The notes beneath the pieces were generated by a model, which did no database searches, had not been told where the DNA came from, and worked only from the letters and a program-made list of their open reading frames with translations. This document shows positions 1,257-58,215 of a stretch of 64,000 bases of DNA, piece by piece; position 1 is the stretch's first letter; every line of letters starts with the position of its first letter. Where the stretch lies: the NCBI RefSeq assembly GCF_963921235.1, contig NC_086108.1:20336001-20400000 (forward strand). Direction: 5' to 3'. This DNA is from Mobula hypostoma. Its lineage: Eukaryota. Both the position numbers and the translations under genes were made by a program.

Positions 1257-2335
1257 GCTATAGTCATAGTCATAGTCATACTTTATTGATCCCGGGGGAA
1301 ATTGGTTTTCATTACAGTTGCACTATAAATAGTAATAAAACCATAAATAGTTAAATAGTAATATGTAAATTATGCCAGGAAATATGTCCAGGACCAGCCT
1401 ATTGGCTCAGGGTGTCTGACCCTCCAAGGGAGGAGTTGTAAAGTTTGATGGCCACAGGCAGGAATGACTTCCTGTGACGCTCTGTGTTGCATCTCAGTGG
1501 AATGAGTCTCTGGCTGAATGTACTCCTGTGCCCACCCACTACATTATGTAGTGGATGGGAGACATTGTCCAAGATGGCATACAACTTGGACAGCATCCTC
1601 TTTTCAGACACCACCGTCAGAGAGTCCAGTTCCATCCCCACAACATCACTGGCCTTACGAATGAGTTTGTTGATTCTGTTGGTGTCTGCTACCCTCAGCC
1701 TGCTGCCCCAGCACACAATAGCAAACATGATAGCACTGGCCACCACAGACTCATAGAACATCCTCAGCGTCGTCCGGTAGATGTTAAAGGACCTTAGTCT
1801 CCTCAGGAAATAGAGACATCTCTGACCCTTCTTGTAGACAGTCTCAGTGTTCTTTGACCAGTCCAGTTTATTGTCAATTCGTATCCCCAGGAATTTGTAA
1901 TCCTTCACCATGTCCACACTGACCCCCTGGATGGAAACAGGGGTCACCAGTACCTTAGCTCTCCTCAGGTCTACCACCAGCTCCTTAGTCTTTTTCACAT
2001 TAAGCTGCAGATAATTCTGCTCACACCATGTGACAAAGTTTCCTACCGTAGCCTTGTACTCAGCCTCATCTCCCTTGCTGATGCATCCAACTATGGCAGA
2101 GTCATCCGAAAACTTCTGAAGACAACAAGACTCTGTGCAGTATTTGAAGTCTGAGGTGTAAATGGTGAAGAGAAAGGGAGACAAGACAGTCCCCTGTGGA
2201 GCCCCAGCGCTGCTGATCACTCTGTCGGACACATAGTGTTGCAAGCACACGTACTGTGGTCTGCCAGTCAGGTGATCAAGAATCCATGACACCAGGGAAG
2301 CATCCACCTGCATCGCTGTCAGCTTCTCCCCCAGA
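1257..2335 (-). mobile_element. Rex1/Babar-like non-LTR retrotransposon, 5'-truncated, nested in L1
   Basis: Open minus-strand ORF (1399 to ~2335) with GAPQGTVLSPFLF, KFSDDSAI and LYFLRRLRSF. (TATGAC)n 3' tail at ~1260-1280. Possible TTTA duplication at 1253-1256 and 2336-2339. Confidence 0.88.
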
Positions 2336-2866
2336 TTTAAATGTGAAATACCCTTAGGGAGTAAGACCATATATTTTGGGTATATACCTCAAGAATGGTT
2401 GAAAAGAGATAAATATTTAATGAAGATACTGCTGGTGGCTGGTAAAAAGACCTTTACCAGGAAATGGTTATCACAGGAGAGCCCAACTTTAAATGTAAGG
2501 ATAGAAATTACAACGGACATTTACGAAATGGAGAAGATAACAGCATCTGTTAATCATAAGTTGAACAATTTGATTCATACCGGGAAAAATGGTGTAACTA
2601 CATAACACCTCATAGGCCTGATTTTATTCTCACAAGTCAATGAATATGTTGTAAAAAAAATCACTCCCTACTTTGTACATAGTTTTCTTCTTTCGATTGT
2701 TCTTTCTTTCCTCTCCTTTCTACAAGAGCATACCTCAAATAAATATTATGTGGAGATTTGTGACAAATATGATTATGATATATAGATACAGTATTTGAAA
2801 TACATCTTATGGAAATGCTTGTTTGATTAGGAACTTCAATAAAAAATAAATTAGAAAAAAAAGAAG
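2336..2866 (+). mobile_element. L1 LINE 3' end (end of ORF2, 3'UTR, A-rich tail)
   Basis: Continues the L1 protein (KILLVAGKKTFTRKW). Ends in AATAAA plus an A-rich tail at ~2838-2862. Confidence 0.85.
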
Positions 2867-3197
2867 TATGTTGTCAACCAGCTGCACGTAGCCGAGTGTT
2901 GTAGTTGCCAAGGAAAATTTCAACAACATACTTGAATGCCCATCATGTGATTTTTCTCTGGTCCCACGAGAAATTCTTCAAATTGCCTGTCATTGATGAC
3001 TTGTTTGATTTCTAGACCAACAAAAATGTCTTTCTTAATCTTGACATCAGTTATTTTGGGAAACATCTATCTCAAGTATCGAAATCCTTCACGGAATTTT
3101 TTTGTGCCTGGTGACAGCGGATTCCATTCTTGCAGTCTTGAACTCAGTAATTCTGCTTTTGACTTTGACAAACCCAAGTCTCTGACCAGGTCTTTTA
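2867..3197 (-). mobile_element. Chapaev3-like DNA transposase remnant, downstream piece
   Basis: Minus-strand translation gives DLVRDLGLSKSKAELLSSRLQEWN joined by an internal deletion to GFRYLR*MFPKITDVKIKKDIFVG. Family assigned from remembered motifs. Confidence 0.65.
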
Positions 3198-4504
3198 TGA
3201 CAAGATAGGCAGAATTCAGCATGGTTTCCTTAAAGCAAAATCCTGCCTGACAAACCTGTTACAATTTTTTGAGGAAATTACAAGTAGGCTAGACAAGGGA
3301 GATGCAGTGGATGTTGTTTATTTGGATTTTCAGAAGGCCTTTGACAAGGTGCCACACATGAGGCTACTTAACAAGATAAGAGCCCATGGAATTACGGGAA
3401 AGTTACATACATGGATAGGGCATTGGCTGATTGGCAGGAAACAGAGAGTGGGAATAAAGGGATCCTATTCTGGTTGGCTGCTGGTTACCAGTGGTGTTCC
3501 ACAGGGGTCTGTGTTGGGGCTGCTTCTTTTTACATTGTGCATCAACGATTTGGATTATGGAATAGATGGCTTTGTGGCTAAGTTTGCTGATAATACGAAG
3601 ATAGGTGGAGGGGCCAGTAGTGCTGAGGAAACAGAGAGTCTGCAGAAAGACTTGGATAGATTGGAAGAATGGGCAAAGAAGTGGCAAATGAAATACAGTG
3701 TTGGAAAGTGTATGGTTATGCACTTTGGCAGAAGCAATAAACGGGCAGACTATTATTTAAATGGAGAGAGAGTTCAAAGTTCTGAAATGCAACGGGACTT
3801 GGGAGCCCTTGTGCAGGATACCCTTAAGGTTAACCTGCAGGTTGAATCGGTGGTGAAGAAGGCGAATGCAATGTTGGCATTCATTTCCAGAGGAATAGAG
3901 TATAGGAGCAGGGATGTGATGTTGAGGCTCTATAAGACGCTGGTAAGACCTCACTTGGAGTACTGTGGGCAGTTTTGGTCTCCTTATTTAAGAAAGGATG
4001 TGCTGACGTTGGAGAGGGTACAAGAGAAGATTCACTAGAATGATTCCGGGAATGAGAGGGTTAACATATGAGGAACGTTTGTCTGCTCTTGGACTGTATT
4101 CCTTGGAGTTTAGAAGACTGAGGGGGGACCTCAAAGAAACATTTCAAATGTTGAAAGGAATGGACAGAGTGGATGTGGCAAAGTTGTTTCCCATGATGGG
4201 GGAGTCTAGTACGAGAGGACATGACTTAAGGATTGAAGGGCGCCCATTCAGAACAGAGAAGTGAAGAAATTTTTTTAGGCAGAGGGTGGTGAATGTATGG
4301 AATTTGTTGCCACGAGCGGCAGTGGAGGCCAAGTCATTGGGTGTATTCAAGGCAGAGATTGACAGGTATCTGAGTAGCCAGGGCATCAAAAGTTATGGTG
4401 AAAAGGCGGGGTGTGGGACTAAATTGGAGAATGGATCAACTCATGATAAAATGGTGGAGCAGACTCGATGGGTCGAATGGCCAACTTCTGCTCCTTTGTC
4501 TTAT
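3198..4504 (+). mobile_element. CR1 LINE, 5'-truncated, nested in the DNA transposon
   Basis: Motifs YLDFQKAFDKVPH, SGVPQGSVLG and LVRPHLEYC. Ends TCTTATGGTCTT. Flanked by GGTCTTTTA at 3189-3197 and 4505-4513. Confidence 0.93.
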
Positions 4505-44574: not shown

Positions 44575-44850
44575 TGAGATACAACACAGAATAGGCCCCT
44601 CTGGCCCTTCAAGCCATGGCGTCCAACAGTCCCTCAATTTAATATGAGCCTAATGACGGGGCAATTTGCAATGATCAATTAATCTACCAACCGGTACGTC
44701 TTTGGACTATGGAAGGAAACTGGAGCACCCAGAGGAAACCAACGTGGTCATGGGGAGAAAGTACAAACTCCTTACAGGCAGTGGAAGAAATTGAACCCTC
44801 ATCACCGGTACTGTAAAGCGTTGTGCCAACCACTATGCTACCCTGCCACC
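44575..44850 (-). mobile_element. V-SINE (HE1-like)
   Basis: Same layout as 18858-19096. Confidence 0.78.
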
Positions 44851-47187: not shown

Positions 47188-47365
47188 TAAGAATTTTATT
47201 TCCTTAATTGCCTCTGGCAATATAGATTGGAAGTTAAGAGAGTTTGTGAAGATGTTTTCACTTCTGAAAGCCTTTAATGTAGTACCTTTGATCTGAAGTT
47301 TGTGTGAAACTAACTTCCTTGTTCTTATTCTCATGAAAAGAGCCAATGGCTGAGAATTGTTGTGT

Positions 47366-49697
47366 TTCTGCCCACATCCCCACCCAGGTCCTCTGCCCAC
47401 ATTTGCATCCAGGTCCTCTGCCCACATGCCCACCTGGGTCCTTTGCCCCCATGCCCACCCAGGTCCTTTGCCCACATCCACATCCAGGTCCTCTGCCCAC
47501 ATCCCCACACAGGTCCTCTGCCCACATTTGCATCCACGTCCTCTGCCCACATGCACATCCAGGTTTTCTGCCCACATCCACATCCAGGTTTTCTGCCCAC
47601 ATCCCCACCCAGGTCCTCTGCCCACATCCCCACCCAGGTCCTCTGCCCACATCCACATCCAGGTCCTCTGCCCACATTCGCATCCAGGTCCTCTGCACAC
47701 AGTCGCATCCAGGTCCTCTGCCCACATCCCCATCCAGGTCCTCTGCCCTCATCTTCACCCAGGTCCTCTGCCCACACCCACACCCAGGTCCTCTGCCCAC
47801 AACCCCACCCAGGTCCTCTGCCCACATTCGCATCTGGGTCCTCTGCCCACATTTGCATCCGGGTCCTCTGCCCACATTTGCATCCAGGTCCTCTGCCCAT
47901 AACCCCACCCAGGTCCTCTGCCCACATCACCACCCGGTCTTCTGCCCACATCCCCACCCAGGTTCTCTGCCCACATCCCCACCCAGATTCTCTGCCCACA
48001 TCCCCATCCAGGTCTGCCCACAACCCCACCCAGGTCCTCTGCCCACATTCGCATCTGGGTCCTCTGCCCACATTTGCATCCGGGTCCTCTGCCCACATTT
48101 GCATCCAGGTCCTCTGCCCATAACCCCACCCAGGTCCTCTGCCCACATGCACATCCAGGTTTTCTGCCCACATCCACATCCAGGTTTTCTGCCCACATCC
48201 CCACCCAGGTCCTCTGCCCACATCCCCACCCAGGTCCTCTGCCCACATCCACATCCAGGTCCTCTGCCCACATTCGCATCCAGGTCCTCTGCACACAGTC
48301 GCATCCAGGTCCTCTGCCCACATCCCCATCCAGGTCCTCTGCCCTCATCTTCACCCAGGTCCTCTGCCCACACCCACACCCAGGTCCTCTGCCCACAACC
48401 CCACCCAGGTCCTCTGCCCACATTCGCATCTGGGTCCTCTGCCCACATTTGCATCCGGGTCCTCTGCCCACATTTGCATCCAGGTCCTCTGCCCATAACC
48501 CCACCCAGGTCCTCTGCCCACATGACCACCCGGTCTTCTGCCCACATCCCCACCCAGGTTCTCTGCCCACATCCCCACCCAGGTTCTCTGCCCACATCCC
48601 CATCCAGGTCTGCCCACAACCCCACCCAGGTCCTCTGCCCACATTCGCATCTGGGTCCTCTGCCCACATTTGCATCCGGGTCCTCTGCCCACATTTGCAT
48701 CCAGGTCCTCTGCCCATAACCCCACCCAGGTCCTCTGCCCACATCACCACCCGGTCTTCTGCCCACATCCCCACCCAGGTTCTCTGCCCACATCCCCACC
48801 CAGGTCCTCTGCCCACAACCCCACCCAGGTTCTCTGCCCACATCCCTACCCAGGTCCTCTGCCTACATCCCCATTCAGGACCTCTGCCCACAACCCCACC
48901 CAGGTCCTCTGCCCACATCACCACCCGGTCTTCTGCCCACATCCCCACCCAGGTTCTCTGCCCACATCCCCACCCAGGTCCTCTGCCCACAACCCCACCC
49001 AGGTTCTCTGCCCACATCCCCACCCAGGTCCTCTGCCTACATTTGCATCCAGGTCCTCTGCCCACATGCCCACCCAGGTCCTCTGCCCACATCCCCACCC
49101 AGGTCCTCTGCCCACATCCTCATCCAGGTCCTCTGCCCACATTCACATCCAGGTCCTCTGTCCACATCCCCATCCAGGTCCTCTGCCCACATCCCCATCT
49201 AGGTCCTCTGCCCACAACCCCACCCAGGTTCTCTGCCCACATCCCCACCCAGGTCCTCTGCCCACATTCGCATCCAGGTTCTCTGCCCACATCCCCACCC
49301 AGGTCCTTTGCCCACATCCCCATTCAGGTCCTCTGCCCACATCCACATCCAGGTCCTCTGCCTACATTTGCATCCAGGTCCTCTGCCCACATGCCCACCC
49401 AGGTCCTCTGCCCACATCCCCACCCAGGTCCTCTGCCTACATCCTCATCCAGGTCCTCTGCCCACATTCACATCCAGGTCCTCTGCCCACATTCGCATCC
49501 AGGTCCTCTGCCTACATCCTCATCCAGGTCCTCTGCCCACATTCACATCCAGGTCCTCTGCCCACATTCGCATCCAGGTTCTCTGCCCACATCCACATCC
49601 AGGTCCTCTGCCCACATCCGCATCCAGGTCCTCTGCCCACATCCCCACCCAGGTCCTCTGCCCACATCCCCACCCAGGTCCACTGCCACAACCCCAC
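47366..49697. repeat. 21-bp minisatellite (CCAGGTCCTCTGCCCACATCC core), about 110 units, with higher-order duplication
   Basis: Directly visible tandem array. Variant units recur 596 bp apart (47696/48292 and 48005/48601). Confidence 0.97.
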
Positions 49698-50329
49698 TGG
49701 TCTATCTAAAGAATCCATTTTGTAATGGCCTAGCATTTGATTACTGTGCTTCTTCCTGAATTAGCTTCATCAGTGTGGTAGGAGTAGGTCCTTTACTTCT
49801 ACTGTCATTTCTTGTTCCTTCCTCTCATTGTCAAATAACAAAATGAAATCAACAAGCAAGTTAAACTAAAGAAAAGATAAATAGATTTAAAGCAATTAAC
49901 TTCCCAAATTTTCCAAAGCCAAAGTCTTGTAAAGATGATGGATTTGAACAAATAATTTTGAGTTTTATAACTGTTATGAATAAGCTATATGTATAGAAAA
50001 GAGTTGGCACACCTTTCAGAATTGTGGAATTTTGATGCACTGTAGCGGTGTGCTACACACAGCGCTAGAATAACCACATGGAGTCGGTGAGTTAGAGTTG
50101 CAATGAAAGAGATTTATTCAAACTTCGTGGCCTGCTTTAAAGCCTTCCCGTTCCCGCCCTCCCTGGGGCGGGACTGCTGTGGGGAATGCATATTCCCAGA
50201 CTCTTTCTGCGCGCGGGATTTTCCCCCTGCTGGTGAAGATGGCCTGGCGCCCTTTTTGGGGCCGGCCCTCTGCCTGCGCGCGCTGTTGTGAGCCGGTTCG
50301 TGGGTGCCAGAAAGTGAGTCGCCACATAA

Positions 50330-53300
50330 CCCCCCCGCAGAACCGGCGATACCTCCCCCAATGTCCACAGTCTGGATCGGCCTCTGTTTGGGAGGTCTGC
50401 CCCTGCGCCGCGGTGCCTGAGCCTGGACCGGCTGCGCCAAGTCCACATGGGCCGGTTTGAGTCGGTCCACCGTGAAAACCTCCTCTCTCCCCCGAATGTC
50501 CAGCAGGAACGTGGATCCGTAGTTCCTGATCACCTTAAACGGCCCCTCGTAGGGCCGCTGTAGCGGTGCCCGGTGTCCGCCCCATCGTACAAAAAGAAAC
50601 TTACAGTTCTGCAGGTCTTTGGGTACGCAGGTTGGGCTCTGTCCATGCTGTGAAGTGGGGATGGGGGCCAGGTTACTGAGCCTCTCCCGTAGTCTGTCCA
50701 GGACTGCTGTGGGTTCTTCCTCTTGCCCCCTTGGGGCTGGTATGAACTCTCCTGGGACTACCAGGGGTGCACCGTACACCAACTCAGCCGACGAGGTGTG
50801 CAGATCCTCCTTGGGTGCCGTGCGGATTCCGAGCAGGACCCAGGGAAGCTCGTCCACCCAGTTAGGCCCCTCCAGGCGGGCCACGAGAGCCGATTTCAGG
50901 TGACGGTGGAAGCGCTCCACTAGTCCGTTCGACTGTGGGTGGTAGGCAGTGGTGTGGTGTAGCTGAGATCCTAAAAGGCTGGCCATAGCCGACCACAGGC
51001 TGGAGGTGAACTGGGTGCCCCTGTCGGAGGTAATGTGGGCCGGTACCCCGAAGCGTGCTACCCAGGTTGCGATCGGTGCTCGGGCGCAGGATTCGGAGGT
51101 GGTGTCGCTGAGCGGGACTGCCTCTGGCCATCTGGTGAAGCGGTCTATCATAGTTAGGAGGTACCGCGCTCCTCGTGACACTGGCAGGGGCCCCACGATA
51201 TCCACATGGATGTGGTTGAACCTCCAGCAGGTGGGTTCGAACTGCTGCATCGGAGACTTGGTGTGCCGCTGCACCTTGGCTGCATGCACGTTTTGGCCCA
51301 TTCACTGACCTGCTTACGAAGTCCATGCCACACGAACCTGTTGGCGACCAGCCGGACGGTTGTCCTGATGGAGGGGTGCGCTAAGTTGTGAATGGACTTG
51401 AAAACCCGCCGGCGCCAGGCTGCTGGGACGACGGGGCGGGGTTGGCCGGTAGCTACGTCACATAGTAGGGTCCTGTCACCTGGGCCTACGGGGAGGTCAT
51501 GGAGCTGCAAACCGGAGACTGCAGTCCTGTAACTGGGGATCTCAGCGTCTGGCTGCTATGCCTCTGCCAGCACTGCATAGTCCACCCCCTGGGACAGGGC
51601 CAGTATGGTAGGTCTGGGAAGTGCGTCCGTCACGACGTTGTCCTTTCCAGAGACATGCCGGATGTCCGTCGTGTACTCGGAGATGTAGGACAGATGTCGC
51701 TGCTGGCGGGACGACCAGGGGTCGGACACCTTCATGAACGCAAAGGTAAGCGCTTTGTGGTCTGTGAACGCGGTGAAGGGCCTACCTTCTTAGAAGTACC
51801 TGAAATGCCGGATTGCCAGGTATAGTGCCAATAACTCCCGGTCGAAAGCACTGTATTTGAGTTCAGGTGGTCATAGGTGTTTGCTGAAGAACGCCAGGGG
51901 TTGCCAGCGGCCCTTGATGAGTTGTTCCAGCACTCCACCGACCGCTGTGTTGGATGCGTCCACCGTGAGGGCAGTAGGAACGTCCTTTCTGGGGTGCACT
52001 AGCACCGCGGCGTTTGCCAAGGCTTCTTTGGTTTTAACGAAAGCGGCTGCGGCCTCTTCGTCCCAGGTAATGTCCTTGCCCTTAAACGACATTAGAGTGA
52101 ACAGGGGTCGCATGGTTCGGGCTGCTGAGGGGAGGAAATGGTGGTAGAAATTCACCATACCCACAAATTCCTGCAGGCCTTTGATTGTGTTGGGTCGGGG
52201 GAAGTTGCGGACCGCGTCTACCTTGGCGGGCAGCGGGTTTGCCCCGTCTTTAGTAATCCTGTGGCCCAGGAAGTCGATGGTGTCGAGTCCGAACTGGCAT
52301 TTGGCTGGGTTGATTGTAAGGCCGAATTCGCTCAGGCGGGAGTAGAGCTGGCGGAGGTGGGACAGATGCTCCTGCCGACTACTGCTGGCTATGAGGATGT
52401 CGTCCAAATAGATGAATGCAAAGTCCAGGTCGCGTCCCACCATGTCCATTAGCCGCTGGAAAGTCTGTGCGGCATTCTTTAGACCAAACGGCATTCGGAG
52501 GAATTCGAAAAGTCCGAACGGGGTGATAAGTGCTGTTTTGGGGATGTCGTCCGGATGTACAGGGATTTGATGGTATCCCCGGACGAGGTCTACCTTGGAA
52601 AAGATCCTTGCGCCATGTACGTTTGCTGCGAAGTCTTGCATGTGCGGCACAGGGTAGCGGTCTGGCGTTGTAGCCTTGTTCAGTCTGCGGTAGTCACCGC
52701 ATGGTCTCCAGCCCCCCATTGCATTGGACACCATGTGAAGGGGGGAGGCCCATGGGCTGTCGGACCGTCGTATGATCCCCAATTCCTCCATCTTCTTGAA
52801 CTCCTCCTTCGCCAGTCGGAGCTTGTCCGGGGGAAGCCTTCGAGCACGGGTGTGGAGGGGTGGTCCCTGGGTCGGGATGTGGTGCTGTACTCCGTGTCTG
52901 GGCATGGCTGCCGTGAACTGCGGTGTCAGTACTGATGGGAAATCTGCCAGGACCCTGGTGAATTTGTCGTCGGACACGTGATGGAGTCCAGGTGTGGGGC
53001 TGGCAACTGTGCTTCACCCAGGGAGAACGTTTGAAAAGTCTTGGCGTGAACTAATCGCTTCCCTTGCAGGTCAACCAGTAGGCTGTATGCTCGTAGAAAA
53101 CCCGCCCCCAGGAGTGGTTGGGCCATGGTGGCCAGTGTGAAGTCCCACGTGAACCGGCTGGAGCTGAACTGTAGCCGCACCGTGCGGGTGCCGTAGGTCC
53201 GTATTGTGCTGCCATTTGCGGCCCTCAGGGTGGGTCCCGGTTCTCTGTTGCGGGTGTCGTAACTCGTTGGAGGTAAGACGCTGATCTCCGCTCCGGTGTC

Positions 53301-53380
53301 GACCAAAAAGCGGCGTCCCGACTGCTTGTCCCAGACGTACAGGAGGCTGTCCTGATGGCCAGCCACCGGAGCCATCAGCG
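50330..53380 (-). pseudogene. CsRn1-type pol (PR-RT-RNaseH-IN), frameshifted
   Basis: ORF-track pieces 52926-53468, 51871-52977, 51154-51510 and 50114-51301 carry DTG, SPWASP, YLDD, HVDIVGPLP, TSDRG and PYEGPF. Confidence 0.93.
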
Positions 53381-54073
53381 GCGGCTGGCCTTGGCGTTTC
53401 CCGGGAATTTGCAGGGTGGTCTGCAGCAGCGGGCCTCTGTGCCCCACTGCTGGTGGTAGAAACACCATTGTTCGTTGGGCTCCTCACTCCCGTCGCCGGG
53501 TTTTGTAGGCTCTGCTGCCGGGCCTGGTCTGGTCTGTTGCTGGGCACGCAGCTTGGTGATCTGTGCGACGGATGCCCCTCTCTCTTTCCTGGCATTCCAC
53601 AGCACATCTGCTTGGGCCGCCACCTCCCGGGGGTTGCTGAAATCTGCGTCGCACAGCAGCAGGCATATGTCCTCGGGCAGTTGCTCTAGGAATGCCTGCT
53701 CAAACATGAGGCAGGGTTTGTGTCCTTCAGCCAGGGCCAGCATCTCGTTCATTAATGCTGACGGCGGCCTGTCTCCCAAACCATCCAGGTGCATTAAGCG
53801 GCGTGCTCGTTCGCGTCATGAGAGTCCGAACGTCCTTATGAGCAGGGCTTTGAATGCTGTGTATTTGCCGTCCTCCGGGGGCGACTGTATAAACTCCTCA
53901 ACTTGTGCAGCTGTCTCCTGGTCGAGGGAGCTCAGCACATAGTAGTAGCGAGTGGACTCCGAGGTTATCTGCCGAATGTGGAATTGTGCTTGTTCAAACC
54001 ATAATTGGAGTCGCAGCGTCCAGAAGCTTGGCAGTTATAACGAAACTGCGTGAACAGATGCAGCGTTGGTCAT
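53375..54073 (-). pseudogene. CsRn1-type gag, with stop and frameshifts
   Basis: MTNAASVHAVSL*LPSFW, LGDRPPSALMNEM and the CHCC knuckle. Confidence 0.85.
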
Positions 54074-54459
54074 CTCTGGTCCAAATATCGTTTGGGCCGT
54101 CGGGGTCACCAATTGTAGCGGTGTGCTACACACAGTGCTAGAATAACCACACGGAGTTGGTGAGTTAGAGTTGCGACGAAAGAGATTTATTCAAACTTCG
54201 CGGCCTGCTTTAAAGCCTTCCCGTTCCCGCCCTCCCTGGGGCGGGACTGCTGTGGGGAATGCATATTCCCAGACCCTTTCTGCGCGTGGGATTTTCCTCT
54301 TGCTGGTGAAGATGGCCTGGCGCCCTTTTTGGGGCCGGCCCTCTGCCTGCGCGCTATTGTGAGCCGGTTCGTGGGTCCCAGAAAGTGGGTCGCCACAGCA
54401 CTATTATACCACTCTCTACAGTTAATTGCAAGCAGACTTCCTTCAATAAAGGTTCTTTA

Positions 54460-55090: not shown

Positions 55091-55737
55091 TTTGATGGTA
55101 GCTTTGTTATTTGCCTTATTTGGCAGTGGTACTAAAGGACCTATGCACACCATGAAAGTGAAGCTACTTGAAGAAACAGCACAGTAACCCAATACGATGC
55201 AAGTAGAAAATTTTTGACAAGGTCCTGCTTGGGAGGTTGATCAAGAATGTTCAGTCGCTTGGTGTTCAAGATGAGGTAGCATATTGGATTAGACATTGGT
55301 TTTGTGTGAGAAGCCAGACAGTGGTAGTAGGGGTTTCCTTTCTGACAGGAGGCCTAGTGGACAACAAGGTAGACTATCATGGCTTTCAGAGGGATCTGTT
55401 TCAGCTGGAAAACTGGGCTGAAGAATGGCGGATGGAATTTAATGCAGACTGTGGTGATATCACGTGTAAGAACGTGATTAGAGAGATTTCTGGGTATGCG
55501 CAGAAATGATAGAAAGATCTGGAAGCATGGCGCTGTAAGACACGTGTGGTTGTTACTGTTAAATAAAAGTTCTATGTCTTCCAGAATATGATTCTTTATT
55601 AGTATGTATAAATATAAAGCACACAACATGGTGTCAGAAGTCGGTCTGGAAAAATAATACGTTACCTAACACGGGAGAATCGAAGATAATTGAAGAGTTC
55701 AAACTGTTTTGGTGTTGTTTTGCTAACAGTTTTGCAA

Positions 55738-57278
55738 ATGGAAGGGCTGCAACCTCCACCGACACTTTGATTGTCTGGGAATGTAGCTGAGAACTGGAGA
55801 AGATTTAAGCAGCGTTTTGAATTGTATTTATCAGCAATCAAAGCAGATAGAAAACTGGAAAAAAAGAAAGCTGCGCTTCTACCCCATGTAATAGGTGACA
55901 ACGCAATTGAGGTATATAATCATTTTATTTTTGAAAGTGGAAATAATTTAAAGTTGGAATTGATAATGGACGAACTTGAAGCATTTTGTATACCAAAGCG
56001 TAATGTGATGTACGAAAGGCACAAATATTTTACGTGTGCAGAGAGCTGCTGAAACTATTGATCAATATGTTACTGAGTTGAGACACCAGAGTAAAACATG
56101 CGAGTTTGCAGAACTAACAGACTCTCTCGTTAAAGACAGAATTGCTTGTGGTATTTGGGATAATGGTTTGAGAGAAAGACTGTTAAGAGAACAAGACTTA
56201 GACTTGGAAAAAGCTTTGATGCTCTGCAAAGCTTCGGAAACCGTGACGTCACAGGCTAAAGACCTTTTCATTGAGAGCTACAACGTAGACTCTACTATGA
56301 GGGAGTTAGATATGGCCCTTGTGGCTACGGGGATCGGGGGTATGGAGGGAAGGCTGGGGCGGGGTTCTGAGTTGGATGATCAGCCATGATCATAATAAAT
56401 GGCGGTGCAGGCTTGAAGGGCCGAATGGCCTACTCCTGCACCTATTTTCTATGTTTCTATGTTTCTATGTAGACGCTGTAAAAAAGTGCAAACATATTAG
56501 AAAAAAATAATAAAACAATTACAAAAATGACAGAGAGCAAGATGTCATCTGAGAGAAAAAAGCTATGTGATCGCTGTGGGCAACAGCATCGGTCAAAACA
56601 GTGTCCAATGTATGGGAAAATGTGCAACAACTGCGGTAAGAGTAATCATTTTTCATGCTGTTGTAGAAGTAGAAAGAAAATAAAACAAGTAACTGCAGTG
56701 CTTGAAAATGAACTTGTAGAGTATTATATAGATGTGCTTTGTGAAAAAAAAACAAAGTAAGAATGACTGGACTATTCCATTGCAAGTGAACCAAAACAAT
56801 ATTCTGTTTAAAGCTGATACTGGAGCACAAGTAAATGTTCTTGCAGAATCTGAGTTTAATGCATTAAAACCAAGACCAAAGTTACATAAGACAAATATAA
56901 GAGTGACTGGGTATTCAGGTGCACACATTCCAGTTAAAGAAACGTGTGGCAAAAGTATCACACAAAAATATTGTGCACATGCTTTCACTTGTGGTGTTGC
57001 CAAGGAATGTACAGTCAATACTGGGTTTATCTGCCTGTGAGAGACTGAATTTGGTGAAAAAAGTCTTAGTCCTGGACAGTGACACAGAGTCTGAGTACAG
57101 TGATTTGATGAAAGAGTATGAGGACTTGTTCAAAGGGCATGGTTGTCTTCCAGGAGAGCACACGATTAAAATTGACAACACAGAACAGCCCATAGTACAT
57201 CCATGTAGAAAAGTACCTTTTGCATTACATCATCAACTGAAAACAGAGCTTGACAGAATGGAACAGCTAGAAGTCATA
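55738..57278 (+). pseudogene. Mag-type gag-protease and pre-RT linker, degraded
   Basis: GNVAENWRRFKQRFELY, ETIDQYVTELR, double Zn knuckle CDRCGQQH...C / CNNCGKSNHF...C, protease FKADTGAQVN and RKVPFAL...ELDRME. Confidence 0.9.
56291..56468 (+). mobile_element. CR1 3' tail inserted in gag
   Basis: (TTTCTATG)3 tail. GTAGAC duplicated at 56285-56290 and 56469-56474. Confidence 0.85.
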
Positions 57279-57652
57279 AAGAAAGCTCCCAGACCCATCC
57301 CTTTGTTACCAGCATCTGACAAAGCATTGCTACCAAAACCAGGAGTTGCAATTTTGCCCTCTGGAAGTAACGCACATGCATCAATGGGCCAGCAATTCCA
57401 TCACAATCTCACCTCTGCAGGAGGACAGAGGCCAAACTTGCCGGTACAGTACAATACTGATCTGAAGCCAAAGAGTGACAAGAACCAGGATCCAATTGAA
57501 AAAGTGAAAGCACAAGTGAAAGAATTGAGAAGTTTATTGAAATGATGAAGTCTCAGCATATAAAAGAGATTACACAGTTAATGAATGAATTAGATGAAGA
57601 AAAGAAGATTCGTATTTCATTACAAATGGAAGTGGAAGGAATTAAGAAAGCT
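57279..57652 (+). pseudogene. SH3KBP1: Captured SH3KBP1/CIN85 C-terminal fragment (Pro/Ser-rich linker plus coiled coil)
   Basis: SDKALLPKPG...GQRPNLP...KPK...VKAQVKELRS[frameshift][39 protein letters not shown] matches the remembered CIN85 C-terminus ([50 protein letters not shown]). Confidence 0.88.
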
Positions 57653-57880
57653 ACAGTACTTGAAGAAGCACAACCCATATCATACATGGTCCAAACAGAA
57701 GAAGGAGCAGTGTTAAGAAGAAATCGCAAAGACCTAAAGAAAGAGCTAACTTCAGAGTTGCAGTTAACTGATGCAGACCAGACAAAACATGAAAATAACA
57801 ACGAAACACTAGAACTGTGTGAACCACTTAGAAGGTCTACTCATGTTCGTAAACCCCCAGAGATTGATAGAGACATGTTA
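57653..57880 (+). pseudogene. Integrase C-terminal tail of the Mag element
   Basis: TVLEEAQPISYMVQTEEGAVLRRNRKDL...LRRSTHVRKPP, typical of the 3' end of Mag pol. Confidence 0.78.
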
Positions 57881-58215
57881 AATTATGTTAAGTTATGGTC
57901 AATGTTGCTAATTGTTTTTCTTTTTAAGAAAAGGAAGATGTGGTGATATCACGTGTAAGAACGTGATTGGAGAGAGTTCTGAGCATGCGCAGAAATGATA
58001 GAAAGATCTGGAAGCATGGTTCTGTAAGACACGTGTGGTTGTTGCTGTTAAATAAAAGTTCTATGTCTTCCAGAATATGATTCTTTATTAGTAACCCATG
58101 GTACATATAAATACTAAGAACACAACACAGACAAGTGTGAGGTGTTGCATTTCGGTTGACCAACCTGGGCAGGTCTTACACAGTGAATTGTAGGACACTG
58201 AGGAGTGCAGTAGAA

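Follow-up and report, generated by a model that had tools for sequence, protein, structure and literature searches.

A decayed Gypsy element of Mobula hypostoma carrying spliced SH3KBP1 sequence and its family of in-frame host-gene chimeras

Introduction

In acutely transforming retroviruses (gag-onc), the retroviral backbone carries env or is accompanied by an env-bearing helper. Gene capture by LTR elements is also known, usually in the form of one-off retrocopies. According to the available portions of Tan 2016 (PMC5131818), LTR-mediated retrocopies contain an intronless partial mRNA in place of part of an internal ORF, display microsimilarity at the switch points (median 6 bp), and include multi-gene chimeras and cases of repeated retroposition with shared switch points, all of which recur in the family described here. 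Maize Bs1, as summarized in passages of the same article, is likewise an LTR element with several host-gene pieces in a hybrid ORF and with shared switch points. A third related system is mouse IAP IΔ1, a non-autonomous element with an in-frame pol deletion and a gag fusion ORF that succeeds beside its helper; the relevant section of a review states that this gag-pol fusion acts in cis (PMC6466679), and the element is also mentioned in a passage of PMC10924933. Mini-Ty1 and mini-Ty3 transpose without coding capacity, as stated in a section of PMC4974528, and translation in cis is therefore not universal among LTR elements.

The window analyzed in this work comprises 64,000 nucleotides of Mobula hypostoma (contig NC_086108.1, positions 20,336,001 to 20,400,000, forward strand). 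It contains, at 55450-58127, a decayed non-autonomous Ty3/Gypsy LTR element in which SH3KBP1 cDNA stands in place of the core formed by reverse transcriptase (RT), RNase H (RH), and integrase (IN). A first-pass annotation had proposed that two template switches, guided by one microhomology present at both junctions, produced a continuous frame from Gag and protease (PR) through a CIN85 coiled coil to the integrase tail, and that the translated chimera could oligomerize with host CIN85 or target Gag to membranes.

Results

Structure of the element and of its parents

Features of the element are collected in Table 1. Two LTRs and the target-site duplication (TSD) CAGAC enclose it entirely, as in LTR retrocopies. 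Gag-PR of this copy matched the Gypsy protein P0013 in five pieces, with frame changes and one stop, and gag is further damaged by one insertion, which was missing from all other copies covering that site and ends in a short microsatellite that we take to resemble a LINE 3' end.

Table 1. Coordinates of the element and of its parts within the window.
Feature	Position	Strand	Evidence or remark
5' target-site duplication CAGAC	55445..55449	+	second copy 58128-58132
5' LTR, TG...CA ends	55450..55628	+	K2P 0.056 vs 3' LTR
Candidate primer-binding-site position, TGG start	55629..55642	+	adjoins LTR end
gag, broken	55738..56745	+	tblastn to P0013 aa 1-274, three pieces
Private insertion, other repeat within gag	56294..56466	+	repeat family D8
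Aspartyl protease (DTG), internal frame change	56753..57031	+	Pfam Asp_protease_2 E 4e-4, below cut-off
PR-RT linker and RT start	57032..57268	+	~90% identity vs RT-bearing copies
Left pol/host overlap (type A junction), codon-aligned	57269..57284	+	parent and host comparison
Captured spliced SH3KBP1/CIN85 cDNA	57269..57651	+	aa ~540-667
Private 1-bp loss, window copy	57532..57534	+	1/48 copies
Right microhomology AGAAAGC (junction R), codon-aligned	57645..57651	+	host and parent loci
Integrase C-terminal tail	57652..57866	+	P0013 aa ~1220-1279; ~90% vs parent copies
Polypurine tract	57927..57938	+	
3' LTR	57939..58127	+	then TSD 58128-58132

The relatives P0012 and P0013 are Ty3/Gypsy single-ORF proteins annotated as 'K02A2.6-like' (62-69% protein identity for the five best matches), and P0013 displayed the Pfam domain order PR-RT-RH-IN. 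Parents were sampled as 10 junction loci picked from the top of 147 RT matches; most of these pieces were ~90% identical in DNA to the pol flanks of the window, and the element L090, of the RT-bearing parent type, has the same LTRs as the window element. Parent-type matches numbered 274, not all of them autonomous, since at least three lie ~260 nt behind a RABEP1 motif. By comparison with parent L089, ~2.26 kb of pol (its positions 1818 to 4074) is missing from the window copy, the internal ORF being replaced rather than interrupted. The distance from the integrase tail to the polypurine tract (PPT) is ~60 nt both in the window and in L089, with no room for env, and neither of them displayed the env-bearing backbone or helper of acutely transforming retroviruses.

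Other features were observed elsewhere in the window. A second, unrelated GC-rich Gypsy-type element occupies 50041-54354 (minus strand), with LTRs 96% identical and with RT (Pfam E 4e-33) and integrase (E 2e-14) in separate frames. A long array of 25-bp tandem repeats with strong negative GC skew extends over ~47267-49900, and ARAGORN called a tRNA-Cys (ACA) at 44776-44847 (minus strand), which may be a tRNA-derived repeat.

Captured SH3KBP1 sequence and its junctions

The insert covers the Pro-rich linker and the C-terminal coiled coil of SH3KBP1/CIN85. It was 91% identical to the named Mobula protein P0001 (77-91% for named ray proteins) and its coil was nearly identical to a solved trimer; a PDB match (2N64/5ABS, E 3e-10) confirmed the identity given by the first-pass annotation. 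The host gene lies on contig C18, where the exon translation reproduced P0001 aa 505-671 exactly. Four exons are joined in the insert (joins after 57311, 57561, and 57625) and the introns of 4180, 1087, and 2037 nt present in the host gene are missing; the template was thus an mRNA, captured in an LTR-mediated way. Mismatches with the host gene amounted to 2.9%. The 1-bp loss had been taken as the only break: this holds for the insert, where it is the sole indel with respect to the host gene, but not for the element, given the stop, frame changes, and insertion in gag-PR. The resulting frameshift is private to the window copy and does not belong to the family.

At the left junction (type A), 9 of the 10 parent copies matched the window at 12-14 of the 16 overlap positions and diverged past 57284 into KIDEP-type sequence, the host sequence matching the window from 57269 onward. 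At the right junction (R), AGAAAGC was exact in parent loci L043, L049, L053, and L057, two other loci presented one mismatch or a nearby substitution, and four did not cover the region. Loose ends of public runs fell exactly at 57269, 57284, 57645, and 57651. The probability of an exact run of at least 7 nt at a random switch point was 9e-4. Since the same right junction closes a longer capture (type C, see below), the left junction of the window copy probably arose secondarily.

The 9-mer AAGAAAGCT, on which the first-pass annotation had based both switches, does occur at 57279-57287 and 57644-57652, in codon phase 0 at both starts, and the junction peptides LEVIKK-APRP and EGIKKA-TVLEE are in frame as described. 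As a homology shared by parent and host it did not hold, being found in none of the 10 left and none of the 10 right parent junction loci (four of the latter stop short of the junction). In its left copy the GCT occurs only in the host, and in the right copy the first A is host-derived and the last T pol-derived. The break points had been misplaced: on the left, VIKK is present in both donors, and on the right, the final T comes from pol. In the host SH3KBP1 tail the 9-mer appears once and its first 8 nt twice, at two IKKA motifs; it is repeated at both junctions because the host encodes IKKA twice. With further copies at 55864, 58441, and 44922, the window holds 5 in total vs. 1.1 expected. 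The eye-catching repeat reads as a coincidence of host sequence, the microhomology itself being real, and template switching guided by microhomology is supported at overlaps other than the 9-mer (~16 nt on the left and 7 nt on the right). A plain TSD was also discarded for the 9-mer, in agreement with the first-pass annotation, since pol is absent between its two copies.

Subfamilies and copy numbers

Junction R was found at 150 places (24-mer, up to 2 mismatches), a coil-core 26-mer at 362 places, one of them the host gene, and a RABEP1 motif at 165 places. A figure of more than 1000 copies was rejected, the 1005 first-look candidates including parent flanks. At least eight related subfamilies carry the SH3KBP1 segment, two of them also with a RABEP1 coiled coil.

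A first set of 48 copies (40 DNA-ranked plus 8 added from a protein-ranked search) presented the same right junction R in all cases, with variation on the left side. Type A, that of the window, accounted for 16 copies; type B, corresponding to A with a 147-nt deletion, for 22; type C, a longer capture from aa ~526, for seven with the junction and one with a private join; and type D, a C/A mosaic, for two. Type E, with a 93-nt linker deletion, was found in L084 and in three public runs. The second set consisted of the 3' side of 20 copies, taken as every other new entry among the first 47 of 100 listed coil-core matches, and included 4 R, 7 F, 4 G, 3 H, and 2 unclassed copies (L096 and L103). 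L096 is an inverted, rearranged copy: its two coil-core matches (G000:C1:234533790 and 234534034) are separated by 244 nt and lie on opposite strands. Three near-identical copies inside 45 kb (L065, L066, and L071, C1:168.38-168.43 Mb) probably reflect a recent segmental duplication.

In type F, pol is joined to CIN85 aa 591 and the coil ends with aa 647, a 12-nt inversion leading back out of it (net -123 nt), so that one third of the coil is absent. The order in type G is pol, RABEP1 aa ~61-152, CIN85 617-661, RABEP1 to ~170, and pol; its RABEP1 piece gave a Pfam Rabaptin match (E 6.5e-13) and was 96% identical to ray RABEP1, and a PDB search with this piece gave no match. Type H passes from the gag linker to RABEP1 without protease, followed by CIN85, R, a 33-nt deletion, a Lys-rich piece, and pol; three amino-acid changes at the end of the coil are common to the three H copies. 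Each of G and H had at least 40 scored matches. The Lys-rich piece (L117 and L118) extends for ~60 codons before a duplicated PPT and 3' end and is probably a third host capture; it gave no Pfam match above the cut-off and no Atlas match. From coordinates alone, three places were candidates for RABEP1-only elements (type J; G000:C1:225316495, C45:33812713, and C50:45741111, with the RABEP1 motif ~260 nt before a parent-type tail) and four for RABEP1-CIN85-R elements (type K), which by their coordinates would be the intermediates expected for mosaics. Gag/PR flanks of G and H (L113-L116) were only ~80% identical to the window and L089; RABEP1 was therefore probably captured by a sister Gypsy family, with later recombination across families. 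A RABEP1 isoform of Narcine (P0037) is listed with an RVT_1 domain.

Reading frame across inherited junctions

The 15 readable inherited junctions (C, A, B, D, E, R, F5', F3', G1-G4, H0, H1, and H2/3, the last as a net value) were all in frame, the classes having been defined after inspection of the copies, D, F5', H0, and H2/3 each resting on two copies, and the RABEP1 junctions being judged without RABEP1 donor DNA. The two junctions of the window alone are too weak for a claim on frame (P = 0.2-0.36 for two of two); counting the sister subfamilies, the continuous frame proposed by the first-pass annotation is supported at the family level. Exact pol-host matches were in frame in a proportion of 0.39-0.62 for 4-9 nt, and pol-pol repeats in 0.38-0.54, giving a null share of 0.38-0.62 overall and of 0.71 for the few matches of at least 10 nt. 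Counting one inherited frameshift, the probability of at least 15 in-frame events out of 16 was 6e-5 at a null of 0.45, 0.003 at 0.6, and 0.026 at 0.7. Private gag/PR indels of at least 9 nt were in frame in 8 of 19 cases, significantly fewer than inherited junctions (Fisher P 0.0016). Inherited frameshifts in gag-PR were absent from the 29 copies considered, and the other frames of the captured pieces contained 4-11 stops. At junction C a 5-nt in-frame join was used, with a 10-nt out-of-frame match only 5 nt away. An in-frame gag fusion over a pol deletion thus characterizes the amplified lineages, as in IAP IΔ1.

The inherited frameshift is a 1-bp loss five codons before R, flagged in 16 of the 48 copies (14-15 of them identical) and present in types A, B, and C. 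It ends the frame 56 codons early but lies near the natural stop, and it therefore agrees better with a required long stop-free frame than with a required integrase tail. In 12/48 copies an A-run in the middle of the coil has gained length, which is read as slippage; if inherited, this gain would be a second exception to the frame rule. Five of six large deletions inside the insert kept the frame (three of these copies derive from the protein-ranked search), a result that weakens the control. Inserts free of frameshifts were found in 16/48 copies (12/40 of those DNA-ranked) and open inserts in 13/48.

These data bear on a reading in which the frame was never selected, in-frame joins following simply from the codon-phased microhomology that two A-rich coding sequences share, with the RNA as a passive cargo. 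We regard it as improbable. It is compatible with the in-frame share of exact matches at 9-10 nt (0.62-0.71), with the spread of the inherited frameshift and the insert deletions just mentioned, and with a pN/pS of ~1 (see below); however, homologies of 3-8 nt, with a null of 0.38-0.48, underlie most junctions, junction F3' nets a multiple of three despite its 12-nt inversion, and P remains at or below 0.026 even at a null of 0.7.

Age, spread, and selection

Rare variants gave pN/pS values of 0.96 in the linker and 1.02 in the coil in 46 copies (the 48 of the first set minus L066 and L071, duplicates of L065). The purifying selection on the captured part that would be expected of a domesticated retrogene was not seen in these 46 copies, which decay neutrally, no copy class being maintained. 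Differences from the host common to nearly all copies were limited to 3 of 381 positions, a pattern indicating a burst shortly after the capture; with so few shared differences, dN/dS on the replicating branch has no power. LTR pairs displayed a median K2P of 0.10 (13 elements, one of them RT-bearing).

Chimeras are annotated in other rays, type A in Hemitrygon (P0003) and type G in Hemitrygon and Hypanus (P0039 and P0060), and the family is therefore old. P0003 is an open chimera of 321 aa with three RefSeq accessions; its changes affected 9/74 linker and 0/52 coil positions (P about 0.007). Capture in a myliobatiform ancestor is the most likely origin, because P0003 retains an SDK tripeptide missing from both dasyatid host genes and the insert has the myliobatiform MG state instead of the Pristis TV state; horizontal transfer may be an alternative. 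The stretch in question was present in seven organisms, and no RNA source was listed among the holders. Contigs of run X14 bridge junction A. Of the four runs compared, three are presumed to be RNA; host-gene contigs dominate, and among the 32 of 1221 pieces listed, no contig from these three bridged junction A or R.

Discussion

We propose, with a probability of about 0.68, that SH3KBP1 was captured by template switching and that the mosaics derived from it were selected for a stop-free RNA translated in cis before decaying neutrally. Host mRNAs would have been co-packaged in particles and copied through template switching by RT, and further switches between chimeras and autonomous copies would have generated the mosaics. 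Lineages would have multiplied only when a single frame without stops ran through their RNA from gag almost to the 3' LTR, translation in cis favoring replication by stabilizing the RNA and/or by supplying the Gag fusion that delivers it, with RT and IN provided in trans by parent elements. The coiled coils would be mostly a convenient cargo, because their A/G-rich E/K/Q codons match A-rich pol and have stops in every frame but their own. Once the burst had ended, every copy decayed neutrally. The cis effect is suggested here by the frames of the junctions, with IAP IΔ1 as a precedent. Premature stops would trigger RNA decay; our search found nothing specific in the literature on nonsense-mediated decay of LTR elements.

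A related reading, which we consider unlikely, is that the coil itself was selected: a Gypsy family of the stingray/devil-ray ancestor would have repeatedly recruited the CIN85 and Rabaptin-5 coils as C-terminal oligomerization modules of Gag or Gag-PR, shuffling them in frame, replacing the multimerization driven by RT and IN and out-multiplying its autonomous helper. Two independent captures both brought coiled coils, four junctions (C, B, F5', and G1) fall within ~30 nt directly after the protease (~57090-57115, in the PR-RT linker), and the Pro-rich linker was progressively lost (E, F, G, and H) while CIN85 aa 617-647 was kept; however, copies were found through the coil-core motif, so that retention is partly built in, F drops one third of the coil, H is devoid of protease, and the changes shared by all three H copies lie at the coil end. 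The intact coil of P0003 beside its altered linker goes in the same direction as the captures, but this protein was picked by annotation and two of the 46 copies studied here also had no coil changes. As reported in the accessible part of PMC3291649, a zipper behind HIV-1 PR raised Gag-PR multimerization and cleavage, and it lowered particle yield as well. A heptad-phase check on P0039 gave too weak a signal in the RABEP1 part to bear on this reading. Oligomerization through the captured coil is possible; the functional value that the first-pass annotation had suggested for a translated chimera is a weak proposal in view of the neutral decay of the copies. As for membranes, the KKxRxR basic patch of human CIN85 (K645, K646, R648, and R650) binds phosphatidic acid, according to a section of PMC4096430. 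These residues, mapped onto the captured coil through the PDB alignment, are missing (as KKIR) in the large subfamily F (7 of the 20 copies sampled), and a shared change lies within the patch in H; membrane targeting by the chimera is therefore unlikely.

Domestication of one copy by the host, for instance as a dominant-negative CIN85 coil or a Gag-based restriction factor, would agree with the open P0003, its three accessions, and its unchanged coil, but it is very improbable, given that 46 copies decay neutrally, 13 of 48 have an open insert anyway, and P0039 and P0060 are heavily changed, one of them truncated.

Selection for a translatable RNA, followed by neutral decay, is the reading that we retain, and it has consequences beyond this locus. 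Many independent inherited junctions in one family form a record that allows one to ask whether non-autonomous LTR elements must stay translatable in order to spread, a need for which the precedent is one experimental case, in mouse. The odd ray RefSeq proteins XP_072897951.1, XP_072880776.1, and XP_059819315.1 are explained as copies of these elements. Our literature search, outside of which lie most subscription papers, found no paper on a ray family capturing SH3KBP1. New with respect to described systems are the scale, the way in which two host coiled coils were serially shuffled in frame, and the frame test that this allows; the supplements of Tan 2016 may list multi-copy cases in fish.

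The elements annotated as 'K02A2.6-like' have the organization Gag-PR-RT-RH-IN, whereas the window copy is devoid of RT, RNase H, and the integrase core. All the features of LTR retrocopies that we tested were found in the ray family: LTRs and TSD, ORF replacement, intron loss, microsimilarity, and shared switch points dispersed over many contigs. In contrast with these ~360 old copies, the retrocopies of Tan 2016, as far as described in the available text (PMC5131818), are young and occupy one or few insertion sites; their frame is tested against the parental protein whereas the ray family keeps the frame from gag on through every inherited junction and adds serial reshuffling among subfamilies. 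Bs1, in the account given in parts of the same article, has one to five copies and one piece out of frame and is called a functional gene; the ray family presents hundreds of copies, all read pieces in frame, and neutral decay. IAP IΔ1 is, in the section available (PMC6466679), a plain deletion of an endogenous retrovirus whose cis effect was established by experiment, whereas the rays incorporated host pieces and the cis effect is inferred. The ray family shows exon shuffling, with two host genes, inside a replicating vertebrate element.
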